Below, piece by piece: positions 173 to 60,126 of a stretch of 64,000 nucleotides of DNA. The stretch lies in contig WRDR01000002.1 in assembly GCA_009779745.1 (NCBI GenBank), positions 67,477 to 131,476 of the forward strand, in the 5' to 3' direction. A model generated the notes under the pieces. The model did not search any database and had not been told where the DNA came from. It worked only from the letters and a program-made list of their open reading frames with translations. Within the stretch, counting starts at the first letter, position 1; each line of letters begins with the position of its first letter. The DNA is from Alphaproteobacteria bacterium (lineage in GTDB: Bacteria; Pseudomonadota; Alphaproteobacteria; UBA9219). The position numbers and the translations under genes are program-made.

Positions 173-3163
173 TTATTGCCTCATAATAGTAGCCGGATCC
201 TCGTGAGCGTACTCTACCAGCTCTTTTGCCATTTCTGCGATAACAGAGCTGGTTGACGCTTCATTAATGTTTCCTCTGTCCGTATACGCAGCGACTCTGC
301 GCCGCACTTCCTGTCTTGCGGAACCTCCCGGAAAATACTTCGCCAATGTTCTTCTGGCAATAACCGCTCCCAGCTCTTCGTAAAGATGCGTTCTTAAAAG
401 CACGTCCTCTACGGACGTAGACAATGCCCATAATTCAATAGGTCCCAGCGTGTTCACCAGATGCTGCTCGTACCGCCCTTCGTTAGTAGACAGCAGCAAA
501 AGCACGGGAGCTCCTGACGATCTCGGTCCTGTCAGCTTATATCTCATGACCCACTTGGCAGTATCGGACAGTCCGAAAATCTTTCCGGTTTCTTCTATGG
601 CTCTGTCGGAAACTGCGGTTCCGCAAATCCATACGCCCGTAGCCAAATCCACCATATCCTTAGAAAAGTCGTCTAATAACTGAGATGCCAAAACTATCTG
701 AACACCCCATTTTCTTCCTTCTCTTACGTCTCTGATGACCTGCGCTCTCACGGAAGGGCTTCTGCTGGTGCGGTGAAATTCGTCATAGCATATTCTTTTG
801 GGAGTTTCCCTTATGTCTCTAATCCTAGACTCATGATAGTTCCTGTACTTTTCCGGCACGGATCTTAACATATCGGTTCCAAGCCACCACAGCCTCGCCA
901 CAACGTGTCTTGCCAGCATGTACATCGTAGCAGTCTGTCTGTCCGCATTAACATCTCCTTGCGGCGACACGTCTTGCAAGTCCATAGCCACTACTCTGGC
1001 AGCTCCTACGTCAAACTTAGTAATAGACGCCAGTATGGGAAACTCTCTGACTGACGTAGCAATCATACGCTCGAACGCATGTATGATTCCTTCGGAAGAG
1101 GCTCCTATCTGAGTTTCTTCCAAGAGCGCGCGTATCTGAGGTCTCCTTGCGGCAGTGACTGCATCGGACAGTGTAGGCACGGCATGTCTCTGCGCCAGCA
1201 TAGCCTCGTGATACGCTCCTTTTTCAAACAACGCATCTACAACTTCCCACCACAGAGGATCTTCCTGCAGATTAATATTGTACTTTTTTAGAGTCTCATC
1301 TACCTCCGCCTCTACTCTTTGCAGATACGGTCTCGGCTCGGAATTCGCTCCTCCGTCATCGCGCCAGCGGTACATCTCGTCTATGCAAAGCCCAACCAAC
1401 TGCGTCATGCCGTCATATGCTTCTATCTGACCCGCAGGCGTACAAAGCAGCGTAAGCAAATCCGTGAGATAAGACCTTTCTTCAGGCAGCGGGAACCTGC
1501 ACCCCAGCTGAGTGTCAAAAGGATTGACTGCATACTCCGGCGTCATGCGCAGTTTAATATGAACAGCCTCGTATCTTCTTTCCGGAGGCAACGCATCGCG
1601 AATCAGAGAAATCAGCCCGGAAGACGAGGGTCCTATATCCAATATGGCGACATAAGGAAGACTGGACGCTCCGGCAGAAAGAACCGTTCCTAAATTCAGA
1701 GCGTTCATCAGCACGGACTTACCGGCACCGGGCTGTGCAAATATCAAATCAAACCACAAAGAAGTAAGAGAAGTTCCCGACTGATAAGGCCAAGCTCTTC
1801 CGTCTACAGTCCTGAACATCACAGAGCCTTCCGTGTACGGAGAGGAGCCTCTCTGCCAAGGAAAGAGCTTCACAACCTCGTGGAAAGGAGCAACTACCGC
1901 AGGAGCAGTAGAAGCGCACGCAATGCCCAGCGCGGAAGACATCAGCATATCCAATGGATCGCCAGCAGCAGAAGAAGCCTGACAATATCCCCAAGCTTCC
2001 AGCGTCTGAGTCATAGAAGCTATTCTTGTCTCAATGAGCTTTCTGTTGCTGGAAGGAGCATAAGTCGCCATAGATATCCGGAGCTTCACAACCGGCTCTG
2101 CGCGCGCAACTTTGTTCAGTTCCAATATCGTGTTGCGTATGTCTTTATTAACGGCATTGGTAAACCCTAAAACTCCGGCTACAAACGCCTTGAATGCCAT
2201 CCCGTATATTCCGCCGCTCTCTACCAGAAACGATATTCTGAACGGCATATCGCTGTCTATGAGCCTGTCCAGCAGCTGAGTAAACGGCGCAGGCTCGGAA
2301 GGAGCCAGAGTCATATCAAGCCCGCTCCAGAATAAAGGTCCGATGCGCACTATGTTGCTTGCCACAATACCGGCGTCTTCAACGCAAAGCTGCCTTCTTA
2401 TAGGAGGCCACAGAATATCGGAAGCGTCTCTCTCTCCGTGCTGAGGAGCCCGCGGCAGAATAGGATCCCCGGGCAAATTAGCCCTCCAGTCCTTATGCCC
2501 CAAATGAGGAGACAGACTGGCACGTACCGCTGCCAAAGCCTCATGAACATCTATGACAGAGACCTTCATACTTAGCTCTTCCATTGCGCTTGTAACGGAA
2601 GCCACGAAACTCTTGTGTCTGGTTCTCAATACAGGCAGAGCTCTTAGCGGAAACTGTGAATCCGGAGCTCTAATCCATTTTTTCTTGCCTAAATCCTTCT
2701 TAGCTTCCGCAAGTTCTGTTTTCGTAAGAACAGAGGGCCTTGTCCACAGCACAAGATACATATCCTCGTGCGCCATATATCTGGACAGGTTCGTAGCTCT
2801 TTCTTCGATAAGATCGCCAAGCTCCAAATCTTCCGCTTTCATAGCACTGCGGTTGCTGTTCATGACTCCTTCGAGATCCTGACCTATCAAAGAGGGATCT
2901 CTGGCAAAATAGAACTGCATAGCGTAGCCCGGGCGGTCGAACCTAGCTCCCAGCTTAATAGTAGCCTGATCTACAATCCAGTTGTACTCTGTCTCGCCGA
3001 CAATGACTCTGGAGCCGTGGTTTTTAACGAAAGTTATGAGAGAGCCGTCCGCTGCCACCAAAGTAGTTTCGTCATCTGCGGTTTCGAGCTGAATAAAAGA
3101 TTCGACGGGCTGATGCAAACCAGTCATCAAAGAGGCTACAGCTTCATCAAAAATTTCGAACAT
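173..3163 (-). CDS. Type IV secretion/conjugation ATPase, VirB4/TraC/TrbE family. The 996-aa length fits the long DotO(IcmB)/TraU-like class.
   Basis: Walker A FAQPGAGKS. Walker-B-like ICYDEFH. VirB4 signature REGRKWGVQIVLASQ (RK...[AS]TQ-type motif D). 996 aa. By eye, GC is higher than in flanking genes. Confidence 0.7.
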   Translation of the reverse strand: MFEIFDEAVASLMTGLHQPVESFIQLETADDETTLVAADGSLITFVKNHGSRVIVGETEYNWIVDQATIKLGARFDRPGYAMQFYFARDPSLIGQDLEGVMNSNRSAMKAEDLELGDLIEERATNLSRYMAHEDMYLVLWTRPSVLTKTELAEAKKDLGKKKWIRAPDSQFPLRALPVLRTRHKSFVASVTSAMEELSMKVSVIDVHEALAAVRASLSPHLGHKDWRANLPGDPILPRAPQHGERDASDILWPPIRRQLCVEDAGIVASNIVRIGPLFWSGLDMTLAPSEPAPFTQLLDRLIDSDMPFRISFLVESGGIYGMAFKAFVAGVLGFTNAVNKDIRNTILELNKVARAEPVVKLRISMATYAPSSNRKLIETRIASMTQTLEAWGYCQASSAAGDPLDMLMSSALGIACASTAPAVVAPFHEVVKLFPWQRGSSPYTEGSVMFRTVDGRAWPYQSGTSLTSLWFDLIFAQPGAGKSVLMNALNLGTVLSAGASSLPYVAILDIGPSSSGLISLIRDALPPERRYEAVHIKLRMTPEYAVNPFDTQLGCRFPLPEERSYLTDLLTLLCTPAGQIEAYDGMTQLVGLCIDEMYRWRDDGGANSEPRPYLQRVEAEVDETLKKYNINLQEDPLWWEVVDALFEKGAYHEAMLAQRHAVPTLSDAVTAARRPQIRALLEETQIGASSEGIIHAFERMIATSVREFPILASITKFDVGAARVVAMDLQDVSPQGDVNADRQTATMYMLARHVVARLWWLGTDMLRSVPEKYRNYHESRIRDIRETPKRICYDEFHRTSRSPSVRAQVIRDVREGRKWGVQIVLASQLLDDFSKDMVDLATGVWICGTAVSDRAIEETGKIFGLSDTAKWVMRYKLTGPRSSGAPVLLLLSTNEGRYEQHLVNTLGPIELWALSTSVEDVLLRTHLYEELGAVIARRTLAKYFPGGSARQEVRRRVAAYTDRGNINEASTSSVIAEMAKELVEYAHEDPATIMRQ

Positions 3164-3312: not shown

Positions 3313-4191
3313 ATGTCTAAGAATTCGGGAAAAAATCTGCAAAACAACTTATCAAGGCGGCAGTTTGTCAAGACTTCCGCCTGCGCAGTCTGTTTTGCGC
3401 TTGCAGCCTCCGCTTTCAGCTTTAAGGCTTTTGCCAGTACGGCGGTAACGGCTAAAGTAAAGCCTCCTGTGCCTAAAAGCGTGCCGTTTCCGGTAAGAAA
3501 GCCCATACCTCCAAAGTACATCGTCATAGACGCAGGACACGGCGGCAAAGATCCCGGAGCTATCGGAGTAAAAGGCACTCATGAAAAAATCGTAACTCTG
3601 GATATTTCCAAAAAAATAGCCTCTATATTGGAAAAACAGGACTCTTTTGTTGTCAAGCTGACTCGCGATAACGATACGTACCTGTCGCTCAAAGACCGAG
3701 TCCAAATCGCAAGGAGCTATAATGCCGATTTGTTCATCTCTATACATGCAGACTCCGCGCCCAATAAGAAGGCAAGCGGGCTGTCTATATATACCCTTTC
3801 CGAAGAGGCATCTGACGACTTCGCCAAAAAACTGGCAGAGACGGAAAACAGGGCTGATGTTATTGAAAATATTCTGGGTCTTCAATTAGAAAACAAAAAT
3901 GTATCGTCTATACTGATGGATATGACTGCGAAGCACACCAGAAACACAGCAAAGCAGGCTAAGATGTCTATTATACAATCCCTGAACAAAAAATGGGATC
4001 TGTTTGATTCCCCTGCTAAGTCCGCTAATTTCGCAGTTCTCAGAGCACCCGAGATACCCTCTATTCTCATAGAAACCGGCTTTCTGTCCAACATAAAAGA
4101 CGAACAGATTCTGACTCAGGCTGCTCAGAGAAAAAAAATAGCAGAGCTTCTGGCGCAGAGTGTTATGAATATTCCTGTTTTGAAGGTGTGA
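3313..4191 (+). CDS. amiC: N-acetylmuramoyl-L-alanine amidase (Amidase_3, AmiC-like) with a twin-arginine signal peptide
   Basis: N-terminal SRRQFVKTSA Tat motif. IDAGHGGKDPGA Amidase_3 signature. C-terminal ETGFLSN block. Confidence 0.8.
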   Translation: MSKNSGKNLQNNLSRRQFVKTSACAVCFALAASAFSFKAFASTAVTAKVKPPVPKSVPFPVRKPIPPKYIVIDAGHGGKDPGAIGVKGTHEKIVTLDISKKIASILEKQDSFVVKLTRDNDTYLSLKDRVQIARSYNADLFISIHADSAPNKKASGLSIYTLSEEASDDFAKKLAETENRADVIENILGLQLENKNVSSILMDMTAKHTRNTAKQAKMSIIQSLNKKWDLFDSPAKSANFAVLRAPEIPSILIETGFLSNIKDEQILTQAAQRKKIAELLAQSVMNIPVLKV

Positions 4192-4196
4192 AATAT

Positions 4197-6779
4197 TTAC
4201 CTACCAATAACCCGTATACCGTCAGCAACAAAGCCGTCTCCGCCTTCTAAGAAAAGGTTATAAACCGTACTCTTGCCTGCTTTCGGCTCGATAGTTTTTA
4301 CTTCTTCTATCTTACCGTCAGCTTTCACGAGTTTATCTCCAACCTTTATCTCACCGGCTCGGACAAGCTTACCGTCTGATAATAAAACAGGGTGAGCAGA
4401 AGTAATCTCCAGATTGTTGATTCTCATATACTCCATGTCTCCGGTTATAGTCATTTTTTTAACTTTAGCCGGTTTGAGGGCAGCTTTTGGTTCTGATAAG
4501 TTAAAGCCCATCACCATGTCTCTGTCCCTTACATCAACGATAGCTTTAACGGAACCGTCCGCCATTGCAATCTGAGCTTTTGAAGGCAGGCAGACATGGA
4601 TAACAGGAGTACTCAAACAGTCCAAGTCTTTCTCAGAAATAATAGTGCCAAGGATACCTTTCTCTTTAACCTCTTTACGTACTCTATTCAGGTCGCTCCT
4701 CTTGAAAAACATATAGGCACTGCTACTACCTCTCCCTTGCTGGGCTTCCTGGTGGGTCGAGTAGTACCCGTCTTCAGAAGTACCTATATAACTCTGTCCT
4801 AGTCTAATCCCGTATGCAGCAAGATTGTTAGCGATTTCCTCCCACCTAAAACGATCACATGTGCTTACACACGGAGTAGGATTAGTACATGTCCGCTGAA
4901 AAACGCACTTTCCTTTATCGTCTTTATGTATATTTCCTTCAGGGTTTATTGGCTCCGGTATATACATGTCCGGATTATCCTTTACACACGTTTCACAATC
5001 TTCAAAAACACCTGTAGACCGCATACACTGACGAGTGGCTGTTATTGTTATTGACGATTGACAGGCTAACTTAGGACATTTAATAGTGCCGTCCCAATAT
5101 CCTTGTATTTCAGTATCTTCCGGACCAACAATTTTTCTTTCACAAGAATCCGTTCTCTCTTTCACGTTCATATTCTTATACCAGATATCCGCAGTCGGAC
5201 TGGAGACTATTGTCGACATACCAGACAAATTGCCGCTTTGAGCAGCATCTATAAAGGATATTAACTCTTTATTTGTTCTTGCAGGTACTAAAAATGTCTT
5301 GCAGCCTCCGGTACCCGTGCTGCCGCCGCCGCTTATAAACTCCTTAATCTTGTCGTCCAGAGCAGATAAATCACAGTTGTCAGCATTAGTGGTGTTATAT
5401 ACATCCTTGCAATAAAAGGTTCCGTCCTCAGCCGTAAATTCAAACGCCATAGCCCCGGACACATCATAAAAATCACCCGGATAAACAGGCGCACCTTTCT
5501 TAACGGTGCTGCTGAGATCTTCTAAAAATCTTCCGTCTGCCGGATAAGACACTTGTGTATGCTGGGTATTATTCGTACCTCTCCACGGGCATATATCCTC
5601 ATTCTTTGGATTAGTACAATCAGCGGTAGGCTCATCAACAAAAGTTATCCCCTCTTGAGGAACCCAAGGAAAACGCCAATACGTCATACGAGCTGCTCCG
5701 GTACTTCCAACAACAGGAAAAGCGTCCGGCAAAAATAAATCCACAAAGACATAATCATCGTCAACTTCGCCGTACTGATAGTATTTTATACAGGTTTGTC
5801 TTCCATAAAAACCGTCCCAAATCAAACGTTCTTCAGGAGAACACTCCTGAAGCACGGTTTCAATACGGAGTACGGGTCTGCTGCTGTGCATTTGTTTAGA
5901 AGGTCTCTTATAGCCTGGCATCATCGGCGGCATTTTTTCACAAAGAGCACCAGACAAGTTAATCCTCTCGTTTGATTCCCTAGCCTTTTCCTTAGCTTTC
6001 ATAGCCTCAAAAGCTTCCGAAACACAGGTATCGTTTATTATAGCATCTACTTCTTTACGTTTAAGTTCTTCATAAAACTGTTTTGCATAGGGCTCGAATA
6101 TTATATCGCCTGCGGTTTCTTTTATATAATCTTCCACTGTCACAAAACGCCAATCGGAAACAAATATATTTTCGTTCTCTATATTATGTTTACGGTCAAA
6201 TAACCGCAAATCACTACTGAAGACCTGCAAATATCTCCAAGGACATTCATCTACAGAGCAAGGCACTCCCTCACCTCCTTGAGATAGAAACTCTTTTATC
6301 TTTTCTTCCATAGCGTATATATAACAGCCTCCTTCAACAGGAGCATGATCATCACAGTTATGCTCCGTGTCGCCTGTATAATACAATGCAGCAAGCGGAC
6401 TAAGCAGCCAAAGTCCGCAGAAATCCTTGTCATTTTCTGTTATACAAAGCTTTTCCGGACAAACTGCACTGTTACGATACGGCAGGTAGTATCGTGATAT
6501 ATCGCCAACATAAGCTGATCTGCCTTCTCCTTTATAATCAACAGCATACATTAAAATATCATTGTGGTTTAGATTTCCCGTACATGTAACAGAATTATTA
6601 GCCCCTTCTTTAATCGTATGCATTTCAGCAGGAATTTTTTCGTCCGGCAGTCTTCCCCAAGCCGCTTGCCAGTCGAAGGGAACAGCAATATTTGTGCTTG
6701 CCGCAAAGGCATTCGGAGCAAAAAACAATCCGGTAACAAAGACTGCCGCAGTAAGGAATTTACCAAAATACCGTGTCAT
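4197..6779 (-). CDS. Secreted cysteine-rich 860-aa protein with a C-terminal Hint (Hedgehog/intein-like) autoprocessing domain
   Basis: Sec signal peptide (...FAPNAFA/AST). More than 35 Cys in the N-terminal ~720 aa. Internal repeat EEKIKEFLSQGGEG / DDKIKEFISGGGSTG. C-terminal Hint blocks: CLPSKAQIAMADGSVKAI, TSAHPVLL (TxxH), VYNLFLEGGDGFVADGIRV. No terminal HN and no C-extein. Confidence 0.75.
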   Translation of the reverse strand: MTRYFGKFLTAAVFVTGLFFAPNAFAASTNIAVPFDWQAAWGRLPDEKIPAEMHTIKEGANNSVTCTGNLNHNDILMYAVDYKGEGRSAYVGDISRYYLPYRNSAVCPEKLCITENDKDFCGLWLLSPLAALYYTGDTEHNCDDHAPVEGGCYIYAMEEKIKEFLSQGGEGVPCSVDECPWRYLQVFSSDLRLFDRKHNIENENIFVSDWRFVTVEDYIKETAGDIIFEPYAKQFYEELKRKEVDAIINDTCVSEAFEAMKAKEKARESNERINLSGALCEKMPPMMPGYKRPSKQMHSSRPVLRIETVLQECSPEERLIWDGFYGRQTCIKYYQYGEVDDDYVFVDLFLPDAFPVVGSTGAARMTYWRFPWVPQEGITFVDEPTADCTNPKNEDICPWRGTNNTQHTQVSYPADGRFLEDLSSTVKKGAPVYPGDFYDVSGAMAFEFTAEDGTFYCKDVYNTTNADNCDLSALDDKIKEFISGGGSTGTGGCKTFLVPARTNKELISFIDAAQSGNLSGMSTIVSSPTADIWYKNMNVKERTDSCERKIVGPEDTEIQGYWDGTIKCPKLACQSSITITATRQCMRSTGVFEDCETCVKDNPDMYIPEPINPEGNIHKDDKGKCVFQRTCTNPTPCVSTCDRFRWEEIANNLAAYGIRLGQSYIGTSEDGYYSTHQEAQQGRGSSSAYMFFKRSDLNRVRKEVKEKGILGTIISEKDLDCLSTPVIHVCLPSKAQIAMADGSVKAIVDVRDRDMVMGFNLSEPKAALKPAKVKKMTITGDMEYMRINNLEITSAHPVLLSDGKLVRAGEIKVGDKLVKADGKIEEVKTIEPKAGKSTVYNLFLEGGDGFVADGIRVIGR

Positions 6780-6819
6780 TTTTGACTCCCTAAATTTAAT
6801 AAATGCTTATGACTAAATT

Positions 6820-7125
6820 TTGCATATTCGGGTATTATATCCCGTGGTGTTATATAAGTCAATAAGCAATAATTTGCAGATGGCGAAACCTTCTGCAAAA
6901 CATGCGGGCAATCCTGCGCTGATAAGAATAGGAAAGACTATCCGCAAAATTCGTGCGGACAGAAAAATCTCGCAGGAAGCGTTGGCCTATGAAGCCGGTA
7001 TTGACCGCTCTTACATGGGCGGCATTGAGAGAGGCGAGCATAACATCACTATTATAAACCTGATGAAGGTAGCCTCGCAGCTTGATATTAAATTGAGCAA
7101 ACTGTTAGAGAAAGCTGATTTGTAG
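6820..7125 (+). CDS. XRE-family HTH transcriptional regulator, C-protein-like. The likely true start is ATG at 6880 (MAKPSAK...).
   Basis: IGKTIRKIRADRKISQEALAYEAGIDRSYMGGIERGEHNITIINLMKVASQLDIKLSKL matches HTH_XRE and restriction-modification controller-type proteins. Confidence 0.7.
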   Translation: MHIRVLYPVVLYKSISNNLQMAKPSAKHAGNPALIRIGKTIRKIRADRKISQEALAYEAGIDRSYMGGIERGEHNITIINLMKVASQLDIKLSKLLEKADL

Positions 7126-7204: not shown

Positions 7205-8488
7205 CACTGTCAAACCACAAGTTAAAATGAGACACTTTCGCCAAAAGTTAAAATGAGACTGGAGGGTTAATAAGAGAGAAGCAAGCAACTAAACTGTCAC
7301 CTAAAAAGGTGACGAATATGAATAAAAAAGACTTATATACACGGTTGACAACAATAGAAAGGCTTGCTTCAGGCACAATTTCTGTTTTTTTGCAATGTCC
7401 GTGCTTAACCTGAGCAAAAGCCAAACTTTTAAGCTGTTAAAACAATACCGAGAACACGGCTTACAAAGCATTAAACACGGACTATGTAACCGTCTGTCAA
7501 ACAATCAAGGCAATTCGTCTGTGAAAGAGCAAGTGCTCGGGTTAATACGCAGCAAATATTATGATTTTGGACCTACGCTTGCCAGCGAACACTTGCTTGA
7601 AGAAGAAGGCATACAAGTTCATCCGGAAACGCTGCGCATATGGATGAAACAAGCAGGATTGGCACATAAAACACGCAAGCGCAAGCCATATCGCCAGCGC
7701 AGGGATCGCAAAGAATGCTTTGGCAAGATGCTGCAGATTGACGGCAGTTTTCATCATTGGTTCGGGGTGGATAAACCAAAAGCCTGTTTGTTAAACTTGA
7801 TTGATGATGCGACTTCACACAATTTGTGTCTGTTTGATCATGAAGAAACATCGTATACTGCCTGTATAGTTCTTTGGCAATGGATACAAAAATACGGCAT
7901 TCCGCAAAGCATTTATTGTGACAGAAGAAATGCCTATATTTCCAGCGAACTATCAGAAAGCTCGGGCTTCTTCGGACAAATGTGTAAAAGATTGAGAATA
8001 CAGATTATTCCGGCTTTCTCAGCGCAAGCAAAAGGACGGGTTGAACGCTCAAATCAGACGCATCAAGACAGGCTTGTTCCCAAGATGAGGCTGCACAACA
8101 TAACAACAATAGAAGCGGCAAACCAATATTTGCAAAGACATTATCTGCATTATCACAACAGCAGGTTTGCAAAACAATCTGCGAGTTTTGAAGATGTTCA
8201 TAGCAAATTGCCTCAACACACAAAACTGGATGACATTTGTTATTTGGAAGAAACAAGAAAAGTTAACAACGACTGGACTATAAAGTTCAGAGGAAGAACC
8301 TTGCAGATTACACGGAAAAACTATTGTCCCGCTAAATCTGCTGTAATGGTACGATACTCTATAAACGGTCATACGGATATTTACTATAAAAACGAACATC
8401 TCAGCTATATTACGCTGAACTCATAACCTCAGAGTCTCATTTTAACTTTTGGCGAAAGTGTCTCATTTTAACTTGTGGTTTGACACTG
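7205..8488. mobile_element. Complete insertion sequence (~1.28 kb) with ~54-bp terminal inverted repeats and one DDE-transposase gene. IS481-like; the family assignment is tentative.
   Basis: Left end cactgtcaaaccacaagttaaaatgagacactttcgccaaaagttaaaatgagact. Right end is its reverse complement (agtctcattttaacttttggcgaaagtgtctcattttaacttgtggtttgacactg), 53/53 identical from tgtcaaacc. 10-bp direct repeats flank both ends. Confidence 0.85.
7395..8426 (+). CDS. IS transposase (rve/DDE integrase-core type with N-terminal HTH)
   Basis: N-terminal HTH LSKSQTFKLLKQYREHGLQSIKHG. Central D...D...E-type catalytic region (QIDGSFHHW, IYCDRRNAY, RVERSNQTHQD). Lies between the TIRs. Confidence 0.75.
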   Translation: MSVLNLSKSQTFKLLKQYREHGLQSIKHGLCNRLSNNQGNSSVKEQVLGLIRSKYYDFGPTLASEHLLEEEGIQVHPETLRIWMKQAGLAHKTRKRKPYRQRRDRKECFGKMLQIDGSFHHWFGVDKPKACLLNLIDDATSHNLCLFDHEETSYTACIVLWQWIQKYGIPQSIYCDRRNAYISSELSESSGFFGQMCKRLRIQIIPAFSAQAKGRVERSNQTHQDRLVPKMRLHNITTIEAANQYLQRHYLHYHNSRFAKQSASFEDVHSKLPQHTKLDDICYLEETRKVNNDWTIKFRGRTLQITRKNYCPAKSAVMVRYSINGHTDIYYKNEHLSYITLNS

Positions 8489-17398: not shown

Positions 17399-18701
17399 TT
17401 CTCAGTCTGTCGCTAATACCCGCACTTTGCCATATCATCGTGTTGAACTCATTGCAGACGCTGCAGTTAGGCTGCCACATCTCATGCGCTTGGTTGCAGC
17501 TTGTGCATATCCATGACGGGTCCGGCACTGCATCAGTCGCTTTGGTAAGCCATATCAATGCAGCTCTTTCATCATGCCTCTCTTCTCTCTCCAGTCTGGA
17601 CAGCATCTTGAAAACGCTTTTCGTAGCCTTGCCGCTGTTGATGCACAAAATTAAATTCCTTCTGGCCTCGCCCCAAATATCAGCGGCTATAGCTGCATCT
17701 GCTATTGCTATATGGCTTGCGTTGTCTTGAGGAGTTTCTTTGCATAATTTCTCTATCTGTTTAAAGCCTTCCAAAGGACTGTCCGCCAGACTCAGCATTA
17801 TCTTATATAACTGAGGGTGCGCACAGTCTTTCCAAGATCTCTCTATAATCTTTTTGGCAGCTCTGTAACGTTCGGAGGCAACTAAAACTTCGCACAACTG
17901 AATAACGGCCGGCGTCCAGTCCGGTCTCAGCCGTATTGCATGACGGGCAGCGTCTATGGAGGCATCAACTTCTCCGTGCGCAAGCTTTATTCTGGATATA
18001 GCTATGCTTAACGCAGCTCCTACTCTGGCAGCTTCTTCCTCGTTCATGATCTTGGAGTTTTCTACTATCTTGAGTTCTTTGGCAGCTCTTTCGTAGTCAT
18101 GATGTCTGATAGCACCCAGCATTTTCATTCTCGATAGCCAAGGAGCTCCGGGTCTTACGTGATAGTATTCGGAAACTACTCTGTCGACTTCGGGAAAGTT
18201 TTTTTTCTGCATGGCAATTTCTATGAGCCCGCGGTATCCCAAAGGAGCTGCTTCAGAGTCCTGAGCCAGCTTGCCGAAAATCTCTTTTGCAGTTTTGTTG
18301 TCAAAATTGGCGGAACAAGCTGTCGCCTGAATCCAGTTCGCCAGCATAGTATTATCAATATTTTTGCCCGCAGAAGCAGCCAGACTTTTCGCCTTGGCGC
18401 AGTCTCCGCAGAAAAGAGCAACCAACGCCTGAGAAAGGAGATTCTGTCCGTGATTCAGCTTGTCCAGTTTGCGTTTTGCCTGCCATAAAATAGGACCCCG
18501 TATCAGGAAAGAGAAAAAACGCAGAAGCAAATGCACTATAAGGGCAAAAAGAAATACCGCTATGATGCAAAATGCCAGGCTTATCTGAAACTCTTCCATA
18601 TCGTTCCAGACTATATTAACATAGCCGTGCTGTTCCGTGAGCCAAAAAATCACGACTGCAAGAACTGCAATCTGAACTATCCAACGTATAACACTCAGCA
18701 T
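17391..18701 (-). CDS. HemY_N-domain/TPR inner-membrane protein (HemY-like)
   Basis: Two N-terminal TM helices (IVQIAVLAVVIFWL, AFCIIAVFLFALIVHLLL) followed by a TPR-like alpha-helical region. Typical HemY_N architecture. Confidence 0.7.
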   Translation of the reverse strand: MLSVIRWIVQIAVLAVVIFWLTEQHGYVNIVWNDMEEFQISLAFCIIAVFLFALIVHLLLRFFSFLIRGPILWQAKRKLDKLNHGQNLLSQALVALFCGDCAKAKSLAASAGKNIDNTMLANWIQATACSANFDNKTAKEIFGKLAQDSEAAPLGYRGLIEIAMQKKNFPEVDRVVSEYYHVRPGAPWLSRMKMLGAIRHHDYERAAKELKIVENSKIMNEEEAARVGAALSIAISRIKLAHGEVDASIDAARHAIRLRPDWTPAVIQLCEVLVASERYRAAKKIIERSWKDCAHPQLYKIMLSLADSPLEGFKQIEKLCKETPQDNASHIAIADAAIAADIWGEARRNLILCINSGKATKSVFKMLSRLEREERHDERAALIWLTKATDAVPDPSWICTSCNQAHEMWQPNCSVCNEFNTMIWQSAGISDRLRTM

Positions 18702-19657
18702 TATTTTGTCTCCTTTTGGACGCTTGTATCTTTATTTACCGCAGCGGCAATGACGGCTAAAAACTCTTTGGACAGGTTTCTAAGGGTACTGTCCAGCTCC
18801 GTGCGCTGCAAAAGCTCTTGTTTCCAGTCCGCTAACGAATCCTGCTTTTCCGACGAAAGAGTTTCAAATACTTTTAACGCCAGATCTCCGTTCTTGTTAG
18901 ACAATGCCATTCTCATGCTTTTAAGCTGTTCCGTATTTATCGGTCTTACGGATATAAATGAAGACAGAGTCTTTTTACCCCATGTTTTTACATCATCAAA
19001 AACCTTTTCCACAGTGCTTTTTTCTATTGGCGCGTCCTGCGCTTCTTCAGGAGCCTCTTCCTTAGTTCTTTTCTCAAAAATAGGACGGGCTTCTGTTTTT
19101 ACTATGGTACTTTCCCAGTTTTCTATGTGGTACAAAAGATCTGCAAAAGAGGCAGCTCCCTTGACGGCAAAGGTTTCCAGCTTCGCAATAGTGTTTATAA
19201 TTTCCGGATTTTTCTCTGCGCTTACACTGAACATTTCCAGCTCCGAAGAGAAAGGCATACCTCTTTCAGCCAGCTCTTTCATCTCTATGAATGAAAGCAC
19301 TGCTATTATTTTATTTGAAAGCTCAGCGTTCAGTTTATCAAATTCAGCTTTCGTATCAGGCAAATCAGGTCTCTGTACTATAGCTTCTTGTTCAAACAGC
19401 TCTTGAGGCAAAGGATCGTCCTTGTCCAACAAAACAAGTTCACTATCCATAGTGTTTATATAATTCGAAATCTTACTCTTGTTATCTTTAAAGTGCAGAG
19501 CTTCTGGAACATAGCCGGAAGCCGCATACGCAACAGCACCAAGCAAAATAATTACAGCAAGTGCGATGTATGCATAGCAGCACTTTTTATCCGAAGCACA
19601 GCAAGAATTTTCTTCATTGCCGATATTAGAATTTTCAGCGTCTTTATTTTCAGCCAT
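18701..19657 (-). CDS. Membrane-anchored coiled-coil protein, candidate alphaproteobacterial Mic60/HemX-like partner of the HemY-like protein
   Basis: Single N-terminal TM (YAYIALAVIILLGAVAYAA). E/K/L-rich coiled-coil body. Start and stop overlap with the downstream hemY-like gene (ATGA at 18701). Confidence 0.45.
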   Translation of the reverse strand: MAENKDAENSNIGNEENSCCASDKKCCYAYIALAVIILLGAVAYAASGYVPEALHFKDNKSKISNYINTMDSELVLLDKDDPLPQELFEQEAIVQRPDLPDTKAEFDKLNAELSNKIIAVLSFIEMKELAERGMPFSSELEMFSVSAEKNPEIINTIAKLETFAVKGAASFADLLYHIENWESTIVKTEARPIFEKRTKEEAPEEAQDAPIEKSTVEKVFDDVKTWGKKTLSSFISVRPINTEQLKSMRMALSNKNGDLALKVFETLSSEKQDSLADWKQELLQRTELDSTLRNLSKEFLAVIAAAVNKDTSVQKETK

Positions 19658-24153: not shown

Positions 24154-24996
24154 TTACTTTACTACAGGCACTGCAGGTGCCTGCCGCTGAAATTTTTCCC
24201 GCACAGGACGAGTGCATGTAACATCAGCCTCTTCTCTGCTTGCTTCTAACACTGTTCTCATTTCCGCGATGTTTCTTTCTGATATTTGCCATAAGTTGTT
24301 CACCATTTCAGGCGAACAATACTCAACCCTAATCTTCATTCGTTCATCGTGCATTTCTTCAAACAAATCCATATCGATTAGGTGTCCTGTTATTCTCTCA
24401 AATTCTCTTGCTATATAAGGAGAAAGATTAATATCGCAAAGAATAGGCTCCATAAACATTTGTTCCGGTTGATTTGTTATTTCCATAGAAGCTATGTCTA
24501 TAATACCGATAGGCTCTTTCGGACCGTTGTATATAATATTACCATTGTAAATATCATCATGTATCATTTTATATTTATCGAACAGCATGGCTGCGAAGCG
24601 GCCTATTGCAGTGCCGGTTCTTTCCAGTTCCTTTTGAGAAATATTGTCAGGCAAGGCATCTCCTTTCACCCGCTCCATTGCAAGGTATGGAAGGAGCTTG
24701 CCGTACGCAAGAGCTTTCGGTATAATATATCCTGCGCCTTTGAAATTTTCTTTTTCCAGCATTTTCAGCATCTCGTATTCATCTTTAAGAGGTAAGCCTC
24801 TGGGCATGCCTGTAGGAATCTTTACTATAACATCAGCCATACCTTTTAGAACAATGACTACGCTGGCAGGACCAATACGCTTAATAGTGCCTGTTTCTAT
24901 ATCTATATTTTCGAACTGCCGGGGCCAGAGATTCCCGCTTTTCCATGTAATGTAGTCCTCATAGGCAGCTATTACTCTTTCGTCCATATAAGTCAT
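24154..24996 (-). CDS. Protein-kinase-like (APH/choline-kinase fold) phosphotransferase
   Basis: VIVKIP (beta3 Lys), EYEMLKML (alphaC Glu), HDDIYNGNIIY (HxD...N catalytic loop), IIDIAS (DFG-equivalent). Confidence 0.5.
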   Translation of the reverse strand: MTYMDERVIAAYEDYITWKSGNLWPRQFENIDIETGTIKRIGPASVVIVLKGMADVIVKIPTGMPRGLPLKDEYEMLKMLEKENFKGAGYIIPKALAYGKLLPYLAMERVKGDALPDNISQKELERTGTAIGRFAAMLFDKYKMIHDDIYNGNIIYNGPKEPIGIIDIASMEITNQPEQMFMEPILCDINLSPYIAREFERITGHLIDMDLFEEMHDERMKIRVEYCSPEMVNNLWQISERNIAEMRTVLEASREEADVTCTRPVREKFQRQAPAVPVVK

Positions 24997-26729: not shown

Positions 26730-27911
26730 TCACATATCCTGCTCTGCCAAGTCGTCTATAAGCCAGCCTTGAAAACCGGAAACATTAAGCTGTCTGCCTA
26801 TAGTAAGGGCTTTTGCGCTGTCACAACGCCCAAAAAATAATTTCCCATGCGGAATCTTAGCCAGTGCTTCCAACACTTCTTTTTCGCCCAAATCCGGAAC
26901 ATTGTCCTTAGACGCATTGACTTTTATCCAGTCCGCATTCACTTTTCCAAAGTCCATATACACAGGCAGCTTAGGCGGAACAGAATCTATTACTACTCTG
27001 AAATTATTCTGTTTGATTAAATCAATCGCACTTAAAGACAGCATAAAATTCTGAAACAAATCTCCGCTGTGAATTTTGAAACCTATCAGCGGACGCTGCG
27101 CGGCCGGAATGCCTTTTATAAAACCCACGAACACCGGACTCATCACGGAAACCACCGATAAATTAAGGTTTATTACCTGTCCGGCTATAGTGCCGTACGA
27201 ATCCGTCAGTATCTTCAAAAAAGACCTGTCCAATACGGCTCCAAGCGCAAAGAAAAAATGTTCCGAATTCGCTATGTCCAATTTAGGAAAAAATTCTTTG
27301 CGGAGATCTGCGAAACTGACAAAAAATTCTTCAGCAATTTTATCCCACTTATGGTTGTTCTCACGGTATACGTTCTGAGAGCGTCCGAACTTCGCAACAT
27401 CTATTTTTTTCAGAAGCTGCTCTATTTGATTCACGTTCTTAGCGGTAAGACTTCCCATATCAGAGTCTATGACGGCGAAATCTTCTTGTTCTTCGCGCCT
27501 AGCTCTGACATCTTCTATGTAGCTGCCGATTTTTTCCCGCAGAGACTCGTAATTATCCGGCAGCTTATACCCGGACAATAAAGACGGAGCCGCTTTATAT
27601 CCTTCCAGTATAACTTCTGAAATCTTTGCTGTCAGAGGTTTTGCGTCTACAGGCTTTTCCCATAAAAGAAAGGCGTCTCCATTAGACATAGGGAAAAACA
27701 GCCCATGAGTTTCCCCGGCAAAAACAGCAAAATTCTTCTGAATAGCCTCTAAAAGCTCGGGATTGTGAAGCAAATCATCTATGGCAGACAAGGCTATGTT
27801 TAAAGCAAACCCAACGGTCTTGTTTCTGTAGAGGCGGCGAGTCCGCATAAGAAAGTCCTGTTCTAACACGAGGTTAGAACTGTTTCTTGTATTAAAAGAC
27901 CATACGCGCAT
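26730..27911 (-). CDS. Hypothetical protein with a degenerate EAL-like C-terminal domain
   Basis: NLNLSVVSV (EAL NLS block). VVIDSVPP in place of DDFGTG. GRCDS in place of EGVE. C-terminal NVSGFQGWLIDD (QG...F-like). Confidence 0.35.
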   Translation of the reverse strand: MRVWSFNTRNSSNLVLEQDFLMRTRRLYRNKTVGFALNIALSAIDDLLHNPELLEAIQKNFAVFAGETHGLFFPMSNGDAFLLWEKPVDAKPLTAKISEVILEGYKAAPSLLSGYKLPDNYESLREKIGSYIEDVRARREEQEDFAVIDSDMGSLTAKNVNQIEQLLKKIDVAKFGRSQNVYRENNHKWDKIAEEFFVSFADLRKEFFPKLDIANSEHFFFALGAVLDRSFLKILTDSYGTIAGQVINLNLSVVSVMSPVFVGFIKGIPAAQRPLIGFKIHSGDLFQNFMLSLSAIDLIKQNNFRVVIDSVPPKLPVYMDFGKVNADWIKVNASKDNVPDLGEKEVLEALAKIPHGKLFFGRCDSAKALTIGRQLNVSGFQGWLIDDLAEQDM

Positions 27912-31096: not shown

Positions 31097-32281
31097 ATGC
31101 ATTCTCCATACGCTTATTCGCAGCCGGCTCCGACTGCCCCGACTCCCCACGAAGACTCCTGTACTTGCGCTATTACGGAAGAGCTTATACAGATAGCGGA
31201 AGATTCTCCCACAAGAGACTATTTTGCAAAAGCTGTCTTGTCTTTAAGCGAGGACGATTTTCCGCTGTCCCCCGAAGAAATGCTCGCATTATATAACATA
31301 CCGGAAACTGAGGCATATATTATAGCAAAAACCTATTCCGGAGCCAATCCTGTAACATACGATATTCTAAATTTGGCAAGAAAAGTTGTAAAAGAGAACA
31401 ATATCGAACATTTTCAGAAAATTAATTCTGAGTGGCTTTTTATGGACACAGAACATTTCGTTGAGTTAACTGAGGATGTTGGTAACTTGATAGTGGCACT
31501 TAGCGAATCCCACGATGTTAAGAAGCTCATCGAGGATTATTACATGATGAGTACAGACGAAAAAGTGGTCTGTCTGCAAAAAATTCTTGATACTGCAGCC
31601 GAAACTCTCGATCTTCCATATACACAACTTGAGACATTTCAACAAGCAAGGACTGATGAGATATTAACTTATGGAAGCGTATGGACTAAGAAATTAAATG
31701 ACGGCAAACATATTATTGAGTTCAATATTCATGATGATGCTCTGAATGATCCTATTGAAAACATAAAAACAATAATACACGAACTGCAGCATATAAAACA
31801 ATGGCACCTAGGCTATACCGCAGATAATAATACCCTTGATGAACTGTTAGCTTTAAGTCTTAGATGGGTCCTCTCCAGCGAGGACTTTGGATATGACACC
31901 TACAAGAACTCTCCGCATGAATTTATAGCAACTTTCTATGCTTATCTAGGCAAGAAAGATTTGGAAAAGATGACAGCCCCTTGTACCTCGGATACGGCAA
32001 GCACCTGTTTCAACGAAGGGTACTTTAGTGGTATTATTGATCAGTTTACTGACTGCATAGGAGAGATATGCAGTACTATTGATACATCGGCTTTAGATAT
32101 TGTTGGGGCAAGTTTTCCGGTAAGTGCACTCTTACTATTTGCAAGGACGCAGGGAAGTATAATTGTGAAAGATAAGCTATGGGAAAGGAGGATAAATAAT
32201 GCTTTGGCAGGATGCCAACAAGAGCCCTCAGCACCAGTATTAAAGACCAGCAACCCGGCATTAACGCATAACTTTTGTTAG
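31097..32281 (+). CDS. Hypothetical protein with an HExxH motif, a candidate zinc metallopeptidase/effector
   Basis: HELQH at ~aa 240, with Glu/Asp-rich downstream helices. No recognisable signal peptide. AT-rich upstream region with repeat copies. Confidence 0.4.
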   Translation: MHSPYAYSQPAPTAPTPHEDSCTCAITEELIQIAEDSPTRDYFAKAVLSLSEDDFPLSPEEMLALYNIPETEAYIIAKTYSGANPVTYDILNLARKVVKENNIEHFQKINSEWLFMDTEHFVELTEDVGNLIVALSESHDVKKLIEDYYMMSTDEKVVCLQKILDTAAETLDLPYTQLETFQQARTDEILTYGSVWTKKLNDGKHIIEFNIHDDALNDPIENIKTIIHELQHIKQWHLGYTADNNTLDELLALSLRWVLSSEDFGYDTYKNSPHEFIATFYAYLGKKDLEKMTAPCTSDTASTCFNEGYFSGIIDQFTDCIGEICSTIDTSALDIVGASFPVSALLLFARTQGSIIVKDKLWERRINNALAGCQQEPSAPVLKTSNPALTHNFC

Positions 32282-41256: not shown

Positions 41257-42138
41257 CTAGTACGGCGTTGTCTTTGAATCAAGACTATAACGATATGAAG
41301 TAAAGGCTGCCAATAATATCGTAACTATCGGAATAATAAGACCGATAAGCAGAATAAAGAGCACTTTGGATAATGGCGCAAAAACAAAAAGCCCGCTCAA
41401 ACGGAAGAATAGCAGAGACAAAACAAGCACTGCGAGCAAATATCCCAAAAAAGCCCCGGCAGCAGCTATAAGCGTAACTTTCCGCTGTAAAAGAGTTGCA
41501 ATCTGTCTGTCTCTGGCTCCGAGGTTGGACAGCATTTTTATAGATTCTTTTTCTGTGAAAACTATAAAACGGCACATGGAACTCACAACGAAAAATATTA
41601 AAAGTATCATAAGGACTGAAACAACAGCAGACGCAATAAACAATCTGTTAAATATAGAAGCGGCGTTATCTACAATAGCAGTATGATCGGAGATGACAAA
41701 ATCCTGAGACAATTCCAGTGCAGTTTCTTTCAGCAAAGCAGAATCAGAGTACGAAGAAAGCTCTATGGTAAAAATGCCGGGCAAATTAAGAGACTCAATA
41801 ATACCGGTATTTGTAAACCAGTCCGAGGATAAATCCAGTATCTGTTCCTTAGACAGCAGCGTAACTTTCTTTACAAAAGGCAAATTGCTTAGTTTTTCCA
41901 GTGCGTGTTCGGGTGCTGATTCGCTTTCCGAATCAGGCGGCGGATTAAACGTGAAAACTTGCAGTACCACCGTATTAGATGTCTCTTTTCTCCAAGCATA
42001 GTAAGAAGTTCCTGCAACGCCTGTTGTGCAGAAGAAGATAACTGCCAGAGCCGCCAGAATCAGCACGCTCGCAAACAGCGCAAATGCGGAGTTGGTTTTG
42101 TTCCTGCCGGACAGAAAAATGTTTTTAAAAAGCGTCAT
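41257..42138 (-). CDS. ftsX: Cell-division ABC transporter permease FtsX
   Basis: Four-TM topology with a large periplasmic loop. Adjacent to ftsE. Confidence 0.8.
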   Translation of the reverse strand: MTLFKNIFLSGRNKTNSAFALFASVLILAALAVIFFCTTGVAGTSYYAWRKETSNTVVLQVFTFNPPPDSESESAPEHALEKLSNLPFVKKVTLLSKEQILDLSSDWFTNTGIIESLNLPGIFTIELSSYSDSALLKETALELSQDFVISDHTAIVDNAASIFNRLFIASAVVSVLMILLIFFVVSSMCRFIVFTEKESIKMLSNLGARDRQIATLLQRKVTLIAAAGAFLGYLLAVLVLSLLFFRLSGLFVFAPLSKVLFILLIGLIIPIVTILLAAFTSYRYSLDSKTTPY

Positions 42139-52228: not shown

Positions 52229-54769
52229 TTACCTTGATGATTCCAGCAAGCTCTTAAACAACTCTGTCTGCTTTTCCAGCTGAATGCGCATTGACAGCTC
52301 GGTGCTCTTGCCGGTTGCTCCTGCGTTCGCCAGCATCAGCGTAGCCCTGGACGTATTATCCCGTATTTCTGAGTTAAGCCTCTTCAATTCTTCTATCCGC
52401 GATACGTTCTCATCAACCTTATCCGCCAAATTGCTTATTACCGCATATATCGCTTCTTTCACATCTCCGGGCAGCATAGAGGTAAACTCCATAGATCTTA
52501 TATTCAACGCCGCCAAATCCTCCAGCCTTTGAGCTAAGTTAGACACGTTGCTGCTAAGCTTAGACAGCTCTTCGCCGGACTCCGTGCTTTGAACTCCTTC
52601 GTTCTTCTGAGACAACAACAATGAACATACTGTCTCTAAAGTGCCTATAACCGCAGTTAGGTTTTCTTCTCCTTTTATCTTATCTCCTCCTTCCGCAGCC
52701 GCCGTGTGCTTTGACGAGGCTATTCTGTCAAAGCCTTCCGACATATGCGTTTCGTGCGATGCAATCAGTCCTTTCATTTTATCAATAGCCGCAACAATCG
52801 TACTATTCTGTTCTTTAACAGAGGATACTTCTCTTTCTATTCCTCCGAACGCAGAACCTAACGCCGCAATCTGTCTCAGCACCAGATTCTGCTGGGAAAC
52901 TGTCGCACTGTTTATCTCTTCGCTGGACGGCATTTTGCCCATACTCTCGGAAAGCGACACTATGGAATCCTGTATTCCTTTTATTGTGACTCCTATAGTA
53001 CTAAGCTGGCTTGAATAGTTCGGAACATCTGTCGGCTTAGAAACCTCTCCCACAGAATCCTGTACTCCTTGCTGAATGCCTTGTATGGCTTTTTCTATCT
53101 CATTAAATTTCTCAGAGTAATCGGGTATAGCTATGCTTCCCATAGAATCCTGTATGTTTCTGCGTATGCCTCTTATAGCCTCTTCTATCTCTTTGAACTT
53201 GTCCGCATAGTCAGGAATATTAATATTTCCTGAAATACTTTTCATTGAGTTCTGCAGCCCATGTACTGCTTTTGCCATATCGGTGAACTGCGCAGAGTAA
53301 TCGTGAGTGCCTGTTGATTTAGTCAACGCCGCTACGGAATTCTTAACGTTAGTTGTAGTTTCAGACAGCACTTTGCCGCTGGCTTGAAACAGATTGATAG
53401 CTCCAAACAGCCTCTGTCCCAGCTCGTCAGCCGTAGAGGACAGTTTCTTCAAAGTATCGGACGAGGACTCTAAGTTAGCGCGCAGACTTATTTCTCCGGA
53501 CATTATAGCCTGCAGGGTCCGCGTCAGCAGCTTGCCGGTAATTTTCGTAATGTCAGCCAGATTGTCAACTTTCTCTTTCATAGAGGGCAGTATGGATCCA
53601 AACTGATCGGCTGCATTTGCATGGGCATTCTTCACCATACTCATAGAATTCGTCATATCCCGGACTGCCTGACCTAATATCTGATCGTTTCTCTTGCCAA
53701 GTTTGCTAACTTCTTCAAACACGCTGTCAATCTTAGAGGAAGCTGCTTCCATCGAAGAAGACTGCTTTTCAAACGTAGACGATATCGCCAATGCTTTTTC
53801 TCTGATTACCTCGGAATCGCCGGACAGCGACTTCATCATAGCCTCGAACAGAGAGCGGGAGCCTCCTTCAAAACGCAGTCTCACAGGCCCCTGATCGCTC
53901 ATCACCGATATGTCCGGCATATGGCTGAAGTGGTAGCGCGCCATGTCTATGGAACGGGCAAGCTCTCCTATAAGGTCCTGCCGCTCGATGCCCCAGATAG
54001 CAGTTCTCATATCGCCGTGCGACATGTTCTGAATGCTTTGCGTCAGAGAAGTAAGCGGAGACTTAGTCAGTCTCACGACTTTATTCACCCAGAAAATACA
54101 CCCTATCATAGAGAGCAGAGCAAAAATGCTGAAAATAGTAATGACTCCGGACCAAAAATTTATTTCTCTCTGATGAGTCAGCATAGAAGCCTTGTTATAA
54201 TCGGCTCTATATTTTTCCACTACCAATAGCGCAGAAGACAGAGGCAATAAATCGTACGGCGTAAGCTTTATAAACTGTTCTTCCGAAGCGGATGCCGTAA
54301 TCTTAATATCCAAATCCGAAGAGTCTTCTTCCGGTTCTTCTGCAAACGGAAGCTCTATCTTGCCAAGAACATTAAAAAACATGCTGTAAATAGCTTGCAA
54401 ATCTTCTTTTTTCCGTAAGTCCTGCGTTCCAGAGAGGCTGGCAATCGCCTTATCCGCCGCTTTGAGACTATCCTGCATTTTGCCGATGAGGACAAAATTC
54501 GGATTCATATAGTAATCCTGAGCAGCTCCTAAAAAGCCGGAATATCCTAAATGCGAGAAAACAGCGGAAACAGCGGATTCGCTTTCATTGCCGGTATTTT
54601 TTTGATTCTCCGTTGTTTCCCACAGCGCAGTTCCTGCCGTGTCTATCCGGTATTTGGAATAGCCAATTCCCACAAAGAGTACTACGTTTATGAATAATAC
54701 AACGCATAGCAATACAAAAGACGTTTTTTCATTAAGAAATGAAAAGCATGATTCTTGGTGCTGCTGCAT
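52229..54769 (-). CDS. Large membrane protein (846 aa): two TM helices, a HAMP-like linker, and long coiled-coil regions including ~27-aa tandem repeats
   Basis: TM1 LLCVVLFINVVLFVGIGY. TM2 ITIFSIFALLSMIGCIFWV, followed by HAMP-like LTSLTQSIQNMSHGDMRTAI..ELARSI. Repeats IPDY(A/S)(D/E)KF(K/N)EIE(E/K)AI(R/Q)GI appear three times. No MCP signalling or kinase domain was recognised. Confidence 0.5.
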   Translation of the reverse strand: MQQHQESCFSFLNEKTSFVLLCVVLFINVVLFVGIGYSKYRIDTAGTALWETTENQKNTGNESESAVSAVFSHLGYSGFLGAAQDYYMNPNFVLIGKMQDSLKAADKAIASLSGTQDLRKKEDLQAIYSMFFNVLGKIELPFAEEPEEDSSDLDIKITASASEEQFIKLTPYDLLPLSSALLVVEKYRADYNKASMLTHQREINFWSGVITIFSIFALLSMIGCIFWVNKVVRLTKSPLTSLTQSIQNMSHGDMRTAIWGIERQDLIGELARSIDMARYHFSHMPDISVMSDQGPVRLRFEGGSRSLFEAMMKSLSGDSEVIREKALAISSTFEKQSSSMEAASSKIDSVFEEVSKLGKRNDQILGQAVRDMTNSMSMVKNAHANAADQFGSILPSMKEKVDNLADITKITGKLLTRTLQAIMSGEISLRANLESSSDTLKKLSSTADELGQRLFGAINLFQASGKVLSETTTNVKNSVAALTKSTGTHDYSAQFTDMAKAVHGLQNSMKSISGNINIPDYADKFKEIEEAIRGIRRNIQDSMGSIAIPDYSEKFNEIEKAIQGIQQGVQDSVGEVSKPTDVPNYSSQLSTIGVTIKGIQDSIVSLSESMGKMPSSEEINSATVSQQNLVLRQIAALGSAFGGIEREVSSVKEQNSTIVAAIDKMKGLIASHETHMSEGFDRIASSKHTAAAEGGDKIKGEENLTAVIGTLETVCSLLLSQKNEGVQSTESGEELSKLSSNVSNLAQRLEDLAALNIRSMEFTSMLPGDVKEAIYAVISNLADKVDENVSRIEELKRLNSEIRDNTSRATLMLANAGATGKSTELSMRIQLEKQTELFKSLLESSR

Positions 54770-60102: not shown

Positions 60103-60126
60103 ATGTGGAATGTGAAATGTGGAATT
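60097..60126. repeat. Purine-tract half element aggagaatgtggaatgtgaaatgtggaatt at the rlmE/M48 junction
   Basis: Same GTGGA/GTGAA unit family. Contains an AGGAGA Shine-Dalgarno-like sequence plus ATG at 60103. Confidence 0.6.

Follow-up and report, generated by a model that had tools for sequence, protein, structure and literature searches.

What does a Hint domain do when it forms the very end of a secreted bacterial protein? The question is raised by a gene on the minus strand of a 64-kb stretch of alphaproteobacterial DNA (contig WRDR01000002.1 of assembly GCA_009779745.1, positions 67,477 to 131,476; the whole stretch is called the window below, and coordinates refer to it unless another locus is named), which encodes a precursor of 860 residues. 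We propose that its product is probably a Sec-exported, disulfide-rich envelope or extracellular protein whose terminal Hint domain, similar to the bacterial intein-like (BIL) domains, cleaves its own chain between Val729 and Cys730. The parts of the gene on which this proposal turns are the following.

4197..6779, minus strand: complete gene for the 860-aa precursor, read directly as an open reading frame (ORF), with its stop codon at 4197..4199
4200..4592, minus strand: Hint (BIL-like) autoprocessing domain, aa 730-860, 131 residues, all-beta, from Pfam, profile, AlphaFold2 and Foldseek
4590..4592, minus strand: codon of Cys730, the predicted nucleophile, at the predicted scissile bond Val729-Cys730; Cys in 26 of 26 members
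4392..4403, minus strand: block B motif T793-S-A-H796; T/S in 26 of 26 members, H in 25 of 26
4209..4265, minus strand: last two strands, VYNLFLEGGDGFVADGIRV (residues 839-857), with the invariant G849 and R856

Is the C-terminal domain a genuine Hint domain? A preliminary description, made from the sequence alone, had recognised its blocks by eye. The TSAHP motif (residues 793-797), the C-terminal segment at 839-857 and the cysteine start all stand, except that the start motif CLPSKAQIAMADGS begins at C730 and not near residue 727. Both an HMM (hidden Markov model) search and structure prediction bear out the call. The Pfam family PT-HINT (PF07591) matches the window protein with 35.5 bits, above its gathering cut-off of 27.7, and is matched by 23 of 30 members of the protein family described below; Hom_end_hint, Vint and Intein_splicing match the window domain more weakly. 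The Hog-type Hint family (PF01079) gives no match to the window protein at E ≤ 10 and weak ones in 17 of the 30 relatives, in each case below PT-HINT, and Hint_2 (PF13403), which we equate with the B-type BILs, matches none of the 30 at E ≤ 0.01. When a profile of 26 family Hint domains was compared with solved structures, the best matches were Tetrahymena BIL2 (E 1e-12) and the Clostridium thermocellum BIL (E 9e-12); inteins ranked below the BILs, and Hedgehog appeared at E 0.2-0.5. An AlphaFold2 model built on the family alignment is all-beta with a mean predicted local distance difference test (pLDDT) score of 91.3. Searched against the PDB by Foldseek, this model returned 60 matches at E ≤ 1e-3, and all 50 among the matches listed were Hint-fold proteins: Tetrahymena BIL2 (E 3e-9, template-modelling (TM) score 0.77 over the whole domain) and the C. 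thermocellum BIL came first, followed by mini-inteins (E 2e-7 to 1e-4), with Hedgehog in 27th and 33rd place (E 1e-5 to 2e-5, TM ~0.7). The earlier assignment to a Hedgehog/Hog type is thus not upheld, given these ranks, the gap between Hedgehog and BIL profile scores, and the missing sterol-recognition region.

The claims that the domain ends the protein and lacks both a terminal His-Asn pair and a C-extein hold across the family. The window protein closes with ...GIRVIGR and a stop codon, four residues past the invariant Arg856 of the last strand, so that the Hint fold is complete; the positions of the intein His-Asn within the last two strands are occupied by variable residues. This end is not a truncation, because the domain is terminal in all 26 homologues that carry it, with just 4-19 residues beyond the conserved final Arg of the fold. 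The C-terminal domain is therefore a genuine Hint domain at the true end of the protein. Throughout the family, the positions of the penultimate His and terminal Asn of inteins and A-type BILs vary, A/G-D-G stands in place of the block F His, and no residue able to act as a +1 nucleophile follows the domain. Against this loss stands a strict retention of the N-terminal chemistry: Cys730 is present in 26 of 26 Hint domains (100%), T/S793 in 26 of 26 and His796 in 25 of 26 (96%), even though the commonest residue of a column has on average a frequency of 0.53 and just 8 of 131 columns, those of Cys730 and His796 included, reach at least 95%. This pattern fits an N-terminal step alone, in agreement with the earlier suggestion of an N-terminal autoprocessing module as opposed to an intein.

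How might such a domain act? The N-S acyl shift and the N-cleavage that can follow it are established chemistry in inteins, BILs and Hedgehog proteins (PMC5874633, PMC8616854). We envision that, once the precursor has been exported and its signal peptide (aa 1-26) cut off, the 131-residue Hint domain would move the Val729-Cys730 peptide bond onto the thiol of Cys730, helped by Thr793 and His796 of block B. Water or a small nucleophile would then resolve the thioester, which could not go on to splicing because the His of blocks F and G and the terminal Asn are lost and there is no C-extein. A single cut would thus free a ~703-residue fragment (aa 27-729) from a ~14-kDa Hint domain, and the end of the segment aa 642-729 would become the new C-terminus of the fragment. 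Cleavage at the N-terminal side only is the best-supported mechanism, because Cys730 and T793xxH796 are kept while His-Asn and a C-extein are absent in all members; fold, motif conservation and terminal position are established in silico, and from them we infer the cut itself.

Several points weigh against this proposal. Cleavage is a prediction for every member of the family alike. In an oxidising periplasm the catalytic cysteine could be tied up in a disulfide, and why a protein should shed a 14-kDa domain is unexplained. The Asp of block F in class-1 inteins is Asn in the window domain (VYNL), although Asn is also the usual residue of the PT-HINT consensus at this place. One family member has Gln for the block-B His, and the AlphaFold model of the N-terminal part of the window protein is moderately confident (pLDDT 70.6).

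Alternatively, the domain might be a relic without catalytic activity, kept on the protein for a structural or binding role. Non-cleaving Hint-like domains occur in nature, the C-terminal catalytic residues are all lost family-wide, and the member without its block-B His would suit such a role as well. A purely structural role, however, would not demand Cys730, T/S793 and His796, and it is the invariance of the first and the near-invariance of the other two, in Hint domains that are 32-57% identical to each other and behind cargo regions mostly ~22-30% identical, that makes us regard a dead domain as unlikely.

A second alternative keeps the chemistry of self-cleavage and changes its outcome: a specific acceptor might attack the thioester, so that the C-terminus of the N-terminal fragment becomes covalently attached to it. 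What could serve as an acceptor? One candidate is suggested by a gene for ~210-250 residues that lies immediately 3' of the Hint gene, on the same strand, in six of the eight loci with downstream DNA. Its copies are as follows.

L003 11881..12633, strand of the Hint gene: partner gene, adjoining the Hint gene on its 3' side
L004 10073..10729, strand of the Hint gene: partner gene, adjoining the Hint gene on its 3' side
L005 9932..10606, strand of the Hint gene: partner gene, adjoining the Hint gene on its 3' side
L006 7474..8112 (the same as L007 5179..5817), strand of the Hint gene: partner gene, adjoining the Hint gene on its 3' side
L009 7028..7744, strand of the Hint gene: partner gene, adjoining the Hint gene on its 3' side
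L010 5679..6314, strand of the Hint gene: partner gene, adjoining the Hint gene on its 3' side

The partner proteins carry a signal peptide of their own and six invariant cysteines, and find each other in BLASTP at E 1e-18 to 1e-42. Against Pfam, PADLOC and the PDB they have no match; considered as the immunity gene that might accompany a PT-HINT protein, the partner matched no immunity family, and the window lacks it. There, neither tblastn nor HMMs run on six-frame ORFs found a copy (with Hint, cargo and partner HMMs, the Hint gene alone was matched among all six-frame ORFs), and none adjoins the Hint gene in L008. In hhalign the partner gave a weak match (E 0.0015, probability 17%) to the module at the N-terminus of the Hint proteins. 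Its co-encoding in most relatives suggests that the partner and the N-terminal fragment act together.

The acceptor might accordingly be a lysine of the partner or of another protein, an amine of the peptidoglycan stem peptide, or a lipid. In such a scenario, the terminal Hint domain would be a single-use ligase that puts a ~75-kDa Cys-rich fragment on an envelope acceptor, in parallel to the cholesterol transfer of Hedgehog and the isopeptide formation of Tetrahymena BIL2. The latter, which is the closest solved relative, does resolve its thioester via a lysine to give an isopeptide (PMC8616854), and besides the retained secreted partner gene, peptidoglycan genes adjoin all three likely paralogues in the MAG (metagenome-assembled genome) to which the window belongs: an Amidase_3 gene in the window (3313..4191), an NlpC/P60 and SH3 gene in L008 (3809..4666), and the ftsW-murD-mraY-murF-murE cluster in L006 (8192..15008). 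Yet the domain stops four residues past R856, with no acceptor-binding extension like the sterol-recognition region of Hedgehog; the partner does not begin with Cys once its signal peptide is removed, and is missing from the window and L008; and envelope genes are frequent chance neighbours. We therefore hold ligation to be quite improbable, and the peptidoglycan neighbours, like a DsbB gene next to another family gene, may be coincidental.

That the protein is the remnant of a polymorphic toxin, its toxin tip and immunity gene lost, for instance through the nearby insertion sequence (IS), is scarcely credible: although PT-HINT, the best Pfam match, normally precedes a toxin tip (PMC3482391) and an intact IS lies 0.4 kb upstream, all 26 Hint-bearing homologues, on many unrelated contigs, stop at the same point, delivery domains such as RHS, filamentous haemagglutinin and LXG were undetected in the 30 members, the IS is on the 5' and not the 3' side of the Hint gene, and the amidase gene downstream is unbroken and reaches up to the Hint stop codon.

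If self-cleavage at Val729|Cys730 is the more probable course, what would be released? The remainder of the precursor is made up as follows.

6702..6779, minus strand: Sec-type signal peptide, aa 1-26, with predicted cleavage after AFA (A26|A27), from sequence features
6360..6701, minus strand: N-terminal module, ~aa 27-140, with FDWQxxWG, IK and an FG-GAP-like loop; pLDDT 80-94
4857..6359, minus strand: Cys-rich middle of the cargo, aa 141-641, whose cysteines include invariant and near-invariant ones; known families and folds gave no match
6267..6314, minus strand: KIKEF...GG motif, copy 1, aa 156-171, read directly
5313..5363, minus strand: KIKEF...GG motif, copy 2, aa 473-489, read directly
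4593..4856, minus strand: lineage-specific insert, aa 642-729, from the alignment; it separates the predicted cleavage site from the last conserved Cys cluster

The charged, hydrophobic and AxA segments (n/h/c layout) of Sec signal peptides are all found at the N-terminus, MTRYFGKFLTAAVFVTGLFFAPNAFA|AS, and the same layout recurs in 27 of 27 family members with complete N-termini, which agrees with the secretion predicted in the preliminary description. That description had credited the protein with more than 35 cysteines; there are 29, namely C730 and 28 in the mature N-terminal part. These 28 cysteines, together with the DsbB gene directly upstream of the family gene in one locus (L005), speak for export, and on such sequence features the protein would be exported and form disulfides. 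The best-conserved segment of the cargo is the N-terminal module, whose FG-GAP-like loop reads D-Y-K-G-E-G in the window and DxxGDGxxDY in relatives. An internal repeat had also been claimed. What remains of it is a 13-14 aa motif with KIKEF at 160 and 477 (8 of 13 identities, matched by 2 of 200 shuffles); no repeat came up when the protein was aligned with itself in BLASTP. In the window protein and the relatives nearest to it there are additional insertions, one of which is the 88-residue insert aa 642-729, where most family members have ~3-10 residues.

For the ~700-aa cargo, searches of Pfam and NCBIfam with the 30 members found no family save one weak FG-GAP_3 match, and its profile matched no PDB sequence. 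These results support the earlier supposition that no described family includes the N-terminal part, and leave no match to a housekeeping family. A thrombospondin-type-1 repeat (TSR) was considered for the W.G.T.CP..C....TI.AERRCQRSSSAY..C.EC module, which looks TSR-like by eye. We rejected it: ten excised segments had no Pfam match at E ≤ 10, a profile had no PDB match, and Foldseek returned TSR matches at E 7-9 only.

How widespread is this architecture? The window protein is identical to GenBank entries MCL2473641.1/MCL2504910.1, named 'MAG: Hint domain-containing protein [Alphaproteobacteria bacterium]'. Among 5.8 billion proteins, a word-indexed search gave two relatives, the same gene in another assembly and P0002 (906 aa, ~50% identical), and a scan of 185,579 species, one genome each, gave a single locus in a MAG labelled Rhodospirillaceae. 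The informative search was an exhaustive one by HMMER, in which a profile covering the N-terminal 725 residues was run against 1.84 billion representatives and matched 33 of them at E ≤ 1e-3. Queried by the Hint domain only, the word-indexed search returned nothing; the Hint alignment brought up just five unrelated short proteins and no family member, and this index evidently misses such sequences. Most members have 550-730 residues and share a signal peptide, the FDWQxxWG N-terminal module and a cysteine-rich middle, and every one whose sequence extends to the C-terminus ends in the same Hint domain. They are labelled 'Hint domain-containing protein' in GenBank and stem from MAGs of Alphaproteobacteria and, in one case, of Bdellovibrionales. 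The distribution, which the preliminary description had proposed to survey, thus appears to be that of a very rare family without a characterised member, nearly confined to MAGs of alphaproteobacteria. From the numbering of GenBank accessions, the window protein, P0034 and P0004 are likely three paralogues in the same MAG, of which only P0004 has a partner.

An association with phages was also considered and rejected: relatives were not found in viral contigs, and the sole match of a metagenome scan (L011 3315..4628) is a protein of 437 residues encoded among phage-like genes and unrelated to the family; its Hint domain is internal and retains ...RVHN, and there is a C-terminal extension. PADLOC gave no anti-phage defence match for the window protein or the partner. 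The closest non-family Hint domains that we found lie in P0046 and P0047, proteins of 215-222 residues with a signal peptide, a ~55-residue Cys-rich peptide and then a Hint domain, which is 36-38% identical to that of the window and ends in VVVHN or IVHR followed by ~9 residues. By their sequences they look like a further, small class of secreted proteins in which the Hint domain lies close to the end; since they too end in this domain, the terminal-Hint layout recurs.

Does the chromosomal surrounding tell more? The features next to the gene are these.

6786..6791, minus strand: Shine-Dalgarno-like AGGGAG, 6 nt from the ATG at 6779, read in the sequence
6834..6862, minus strand: promoter-like site TTGACT-17-TATAAT, 11 of 12 consensus positions, ~55 nt 5' of the ATG
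6408..6410, minus strand: TT/TTT variant site within the gene; L002 (~2098), a second assembly of the same organism, has TT for TTT
6820..7125, plus strand: XRE/C-protein-like helix-turn-helix gene, divergent from the Hint gene
7205..8488: ISNCY-family IS, apparently intact, between the XRE-type regulator gene and phaR
173..3163, minus strand: 996-aa Walker-A protein, named IcmB by NCBI, with a 22-bit TraC-F-type match only

The gene that the preliminary description had delimited is real, and with its promoter-like site, its AGGGAG ribosome-binding site and its signal-peptide start it looks expressed, even if the promoter-like site is a consensus match only, of a kind that is no more frequent in the region than in shuffled sequence. 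This site lies within the TTG-started 5' end of the XRE ORF, whose true start is for this reason probably an ATG near 6880 (MAKPSAKH...). The XRE-type protein could regulate the Hint gene; an XRE gene was not found at the other family loci. The TT variant breaks the Hint gene of L002 into ORFs of 160 and 689 residues. L002 and the window are 99.99% identical over 8.5 kb, and the intact TTT form is present on three contigs; the frameshift could be an assembly error or a genuine inactivating variant.

A role in host interaction had been read from two neighbours, a presumed type IV secretion ATPase and a mobile element. The former, the IcmB-like protein, has neither a Pfam match nor a match to a PDB sequence, and its gene stands alone between the amidase gene and the AAA and gpsA genes, which lie past the window end, in L002; other secretion or Dot/Icm genes were seen neither in the annotated part of the window nor past its left end. 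The latter is the ISNCY element, with its transposase at 7395..8426 (NCBIfam, 348 bits) and inverted ends of ~56 bp at 7205-7260 and 8433-8488. Both adjoin the window copy only and are absent next to the seven other family loci (L003-L006, L008-L010), which sit among housekeeping genes, so this part of the argument falls away. On its 3' side, the Hint gene abuts the amidase gene, which is convergent with it.

The remainder of the window is ordinary chromosome. We mention in passing an ORF of 682 residues with a GTG start at 59455..61503 (plus strand), in which RlmE (aa 14-215) is followed by a BepA-like M48 protease (aa 245-641), and which represents a fusion or else a pair of genes read as a single ORF. 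Seven ORFs of 280-846 residues have no NCBIfam match at E ≤ 1e-10: 52229..54769, 62222..63961, 26730..27911, 18701..19657, 24154..24996 and 41257..42138 on the minus strand and 31097..32281 on the plus strand. None of them matches the Hint-family or partner profiles.

What would follow if these proposals are correct? If the precursor does cleave itself, the family would be a clean natural case in which a Hint domain of bacteria has kept N-terminal cleavage alone and closes a secreted chain, with the logic of Hedgehog reached inside the BIL lineage. It would also add a new, large disulfide-rich cargo domain with a conserved partner protein, and a compact N-cleaving Hint domain of 131 residues without C-terminal activity might be of use in protein engineering. 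Should the domain instead act as a ligase, bacteria would have a counterpart to Hedgehog lipidation or to BIL2 isopeptide ligation, by which a surface protein would be anchored covalently, independently of sortase, in a Gram-negative cell. The family has by itself no bearing on the origin of Hedgehog, because its Hint domain is no closer to Hog than other BILs are.

How, then, does the window family compare with known systems? With inteins it shares the Hint fold, Cys1 and TxxH; unlike them it has no C-extein, terminal Asn or +1 nucleophile and is not inserted in a conserved host protein, and for these reasons splicing is impossible. With Hedgehog and Hog proteins it shares the order of signal peptide, cargo and Hint domain, the fold, as the Foldseek matches attest, and, by prediction, an N-terminal acyl shift with cleavage only. 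It differs from them in a profile similarity far weaker than that to BILs, in having no sterol-recognition region after the Hint fold, in a cleavage junction that is not G-C-F, and in its bacterial host.

The preliminary description had taken a terminal Hint domain to be unusual for bacteria. This layout is already known, as is the database name of the proteins: Burglin (2008; PMC2362128), crediting Dassa and Pietrokovski with prior detection, reported secreted bacterial proteins with conserved upstream cysteines and a C-terminal Hint-like domain, and the C-type BILs of predatory bacteria followed (Dori-Bachash et al., 2009, as cited in PMC9185962). Small secreted Cys-rich Hint proteins are a further instance. 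Like this group, the window family has a signal peptide, an N-terminal region with conserved cysteines and a C-terminal Hint-like domain without His-Asn, and its Bdellovibrionales member recalls the predatory hosts of C-type BILs. The Hint domains of the Burglin group, however, end in FAGGxLVGD and a tail of ~20-30 residues (in the optically recognised text of the paper's supplement), and those of the window family in G[FY][VI]AxGxRV[LM] and 2-17 residues. A PPS-1 domain is a further mark of the C-type BIL proteins. Because the GxRV[LM]x ending differs from FAGGxLVGD with its long tail, the family is probably a separate clade.

The closest systems are the A-type BIL and PT-HINT domains (2LWY of C. 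thermocellum BIL; 6Y75/6TMM of Tetrahymena BIL2), which are the best matches in both sequence and structure. They agree with the window domain in size (~130-150 aa), in the Cys start, the TxxH of block B and the VYNL block, and in their occurrence in secreted, variable bacterial proteins. They retain His-Asn, followed by more protein such as a toxin tip or a ubiquitin-like domain, where the window family has variable residues after the invariant Arg and then a stop. The defining position of PT-HINT is immediately N-terminal to a variable toxin domain (PMC3482391); in the window family, nothing follows the Hint domain in any member. What is undescribed here is the large cargo domain, the conserved partner gene, and a Hint domain of BIL lineage that is predicted to be stripped down to N-cleavage. 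On the strength of profile and model comparisons, we place this domain with the BIL and PT-HINT domains and not with those of the Hog type.

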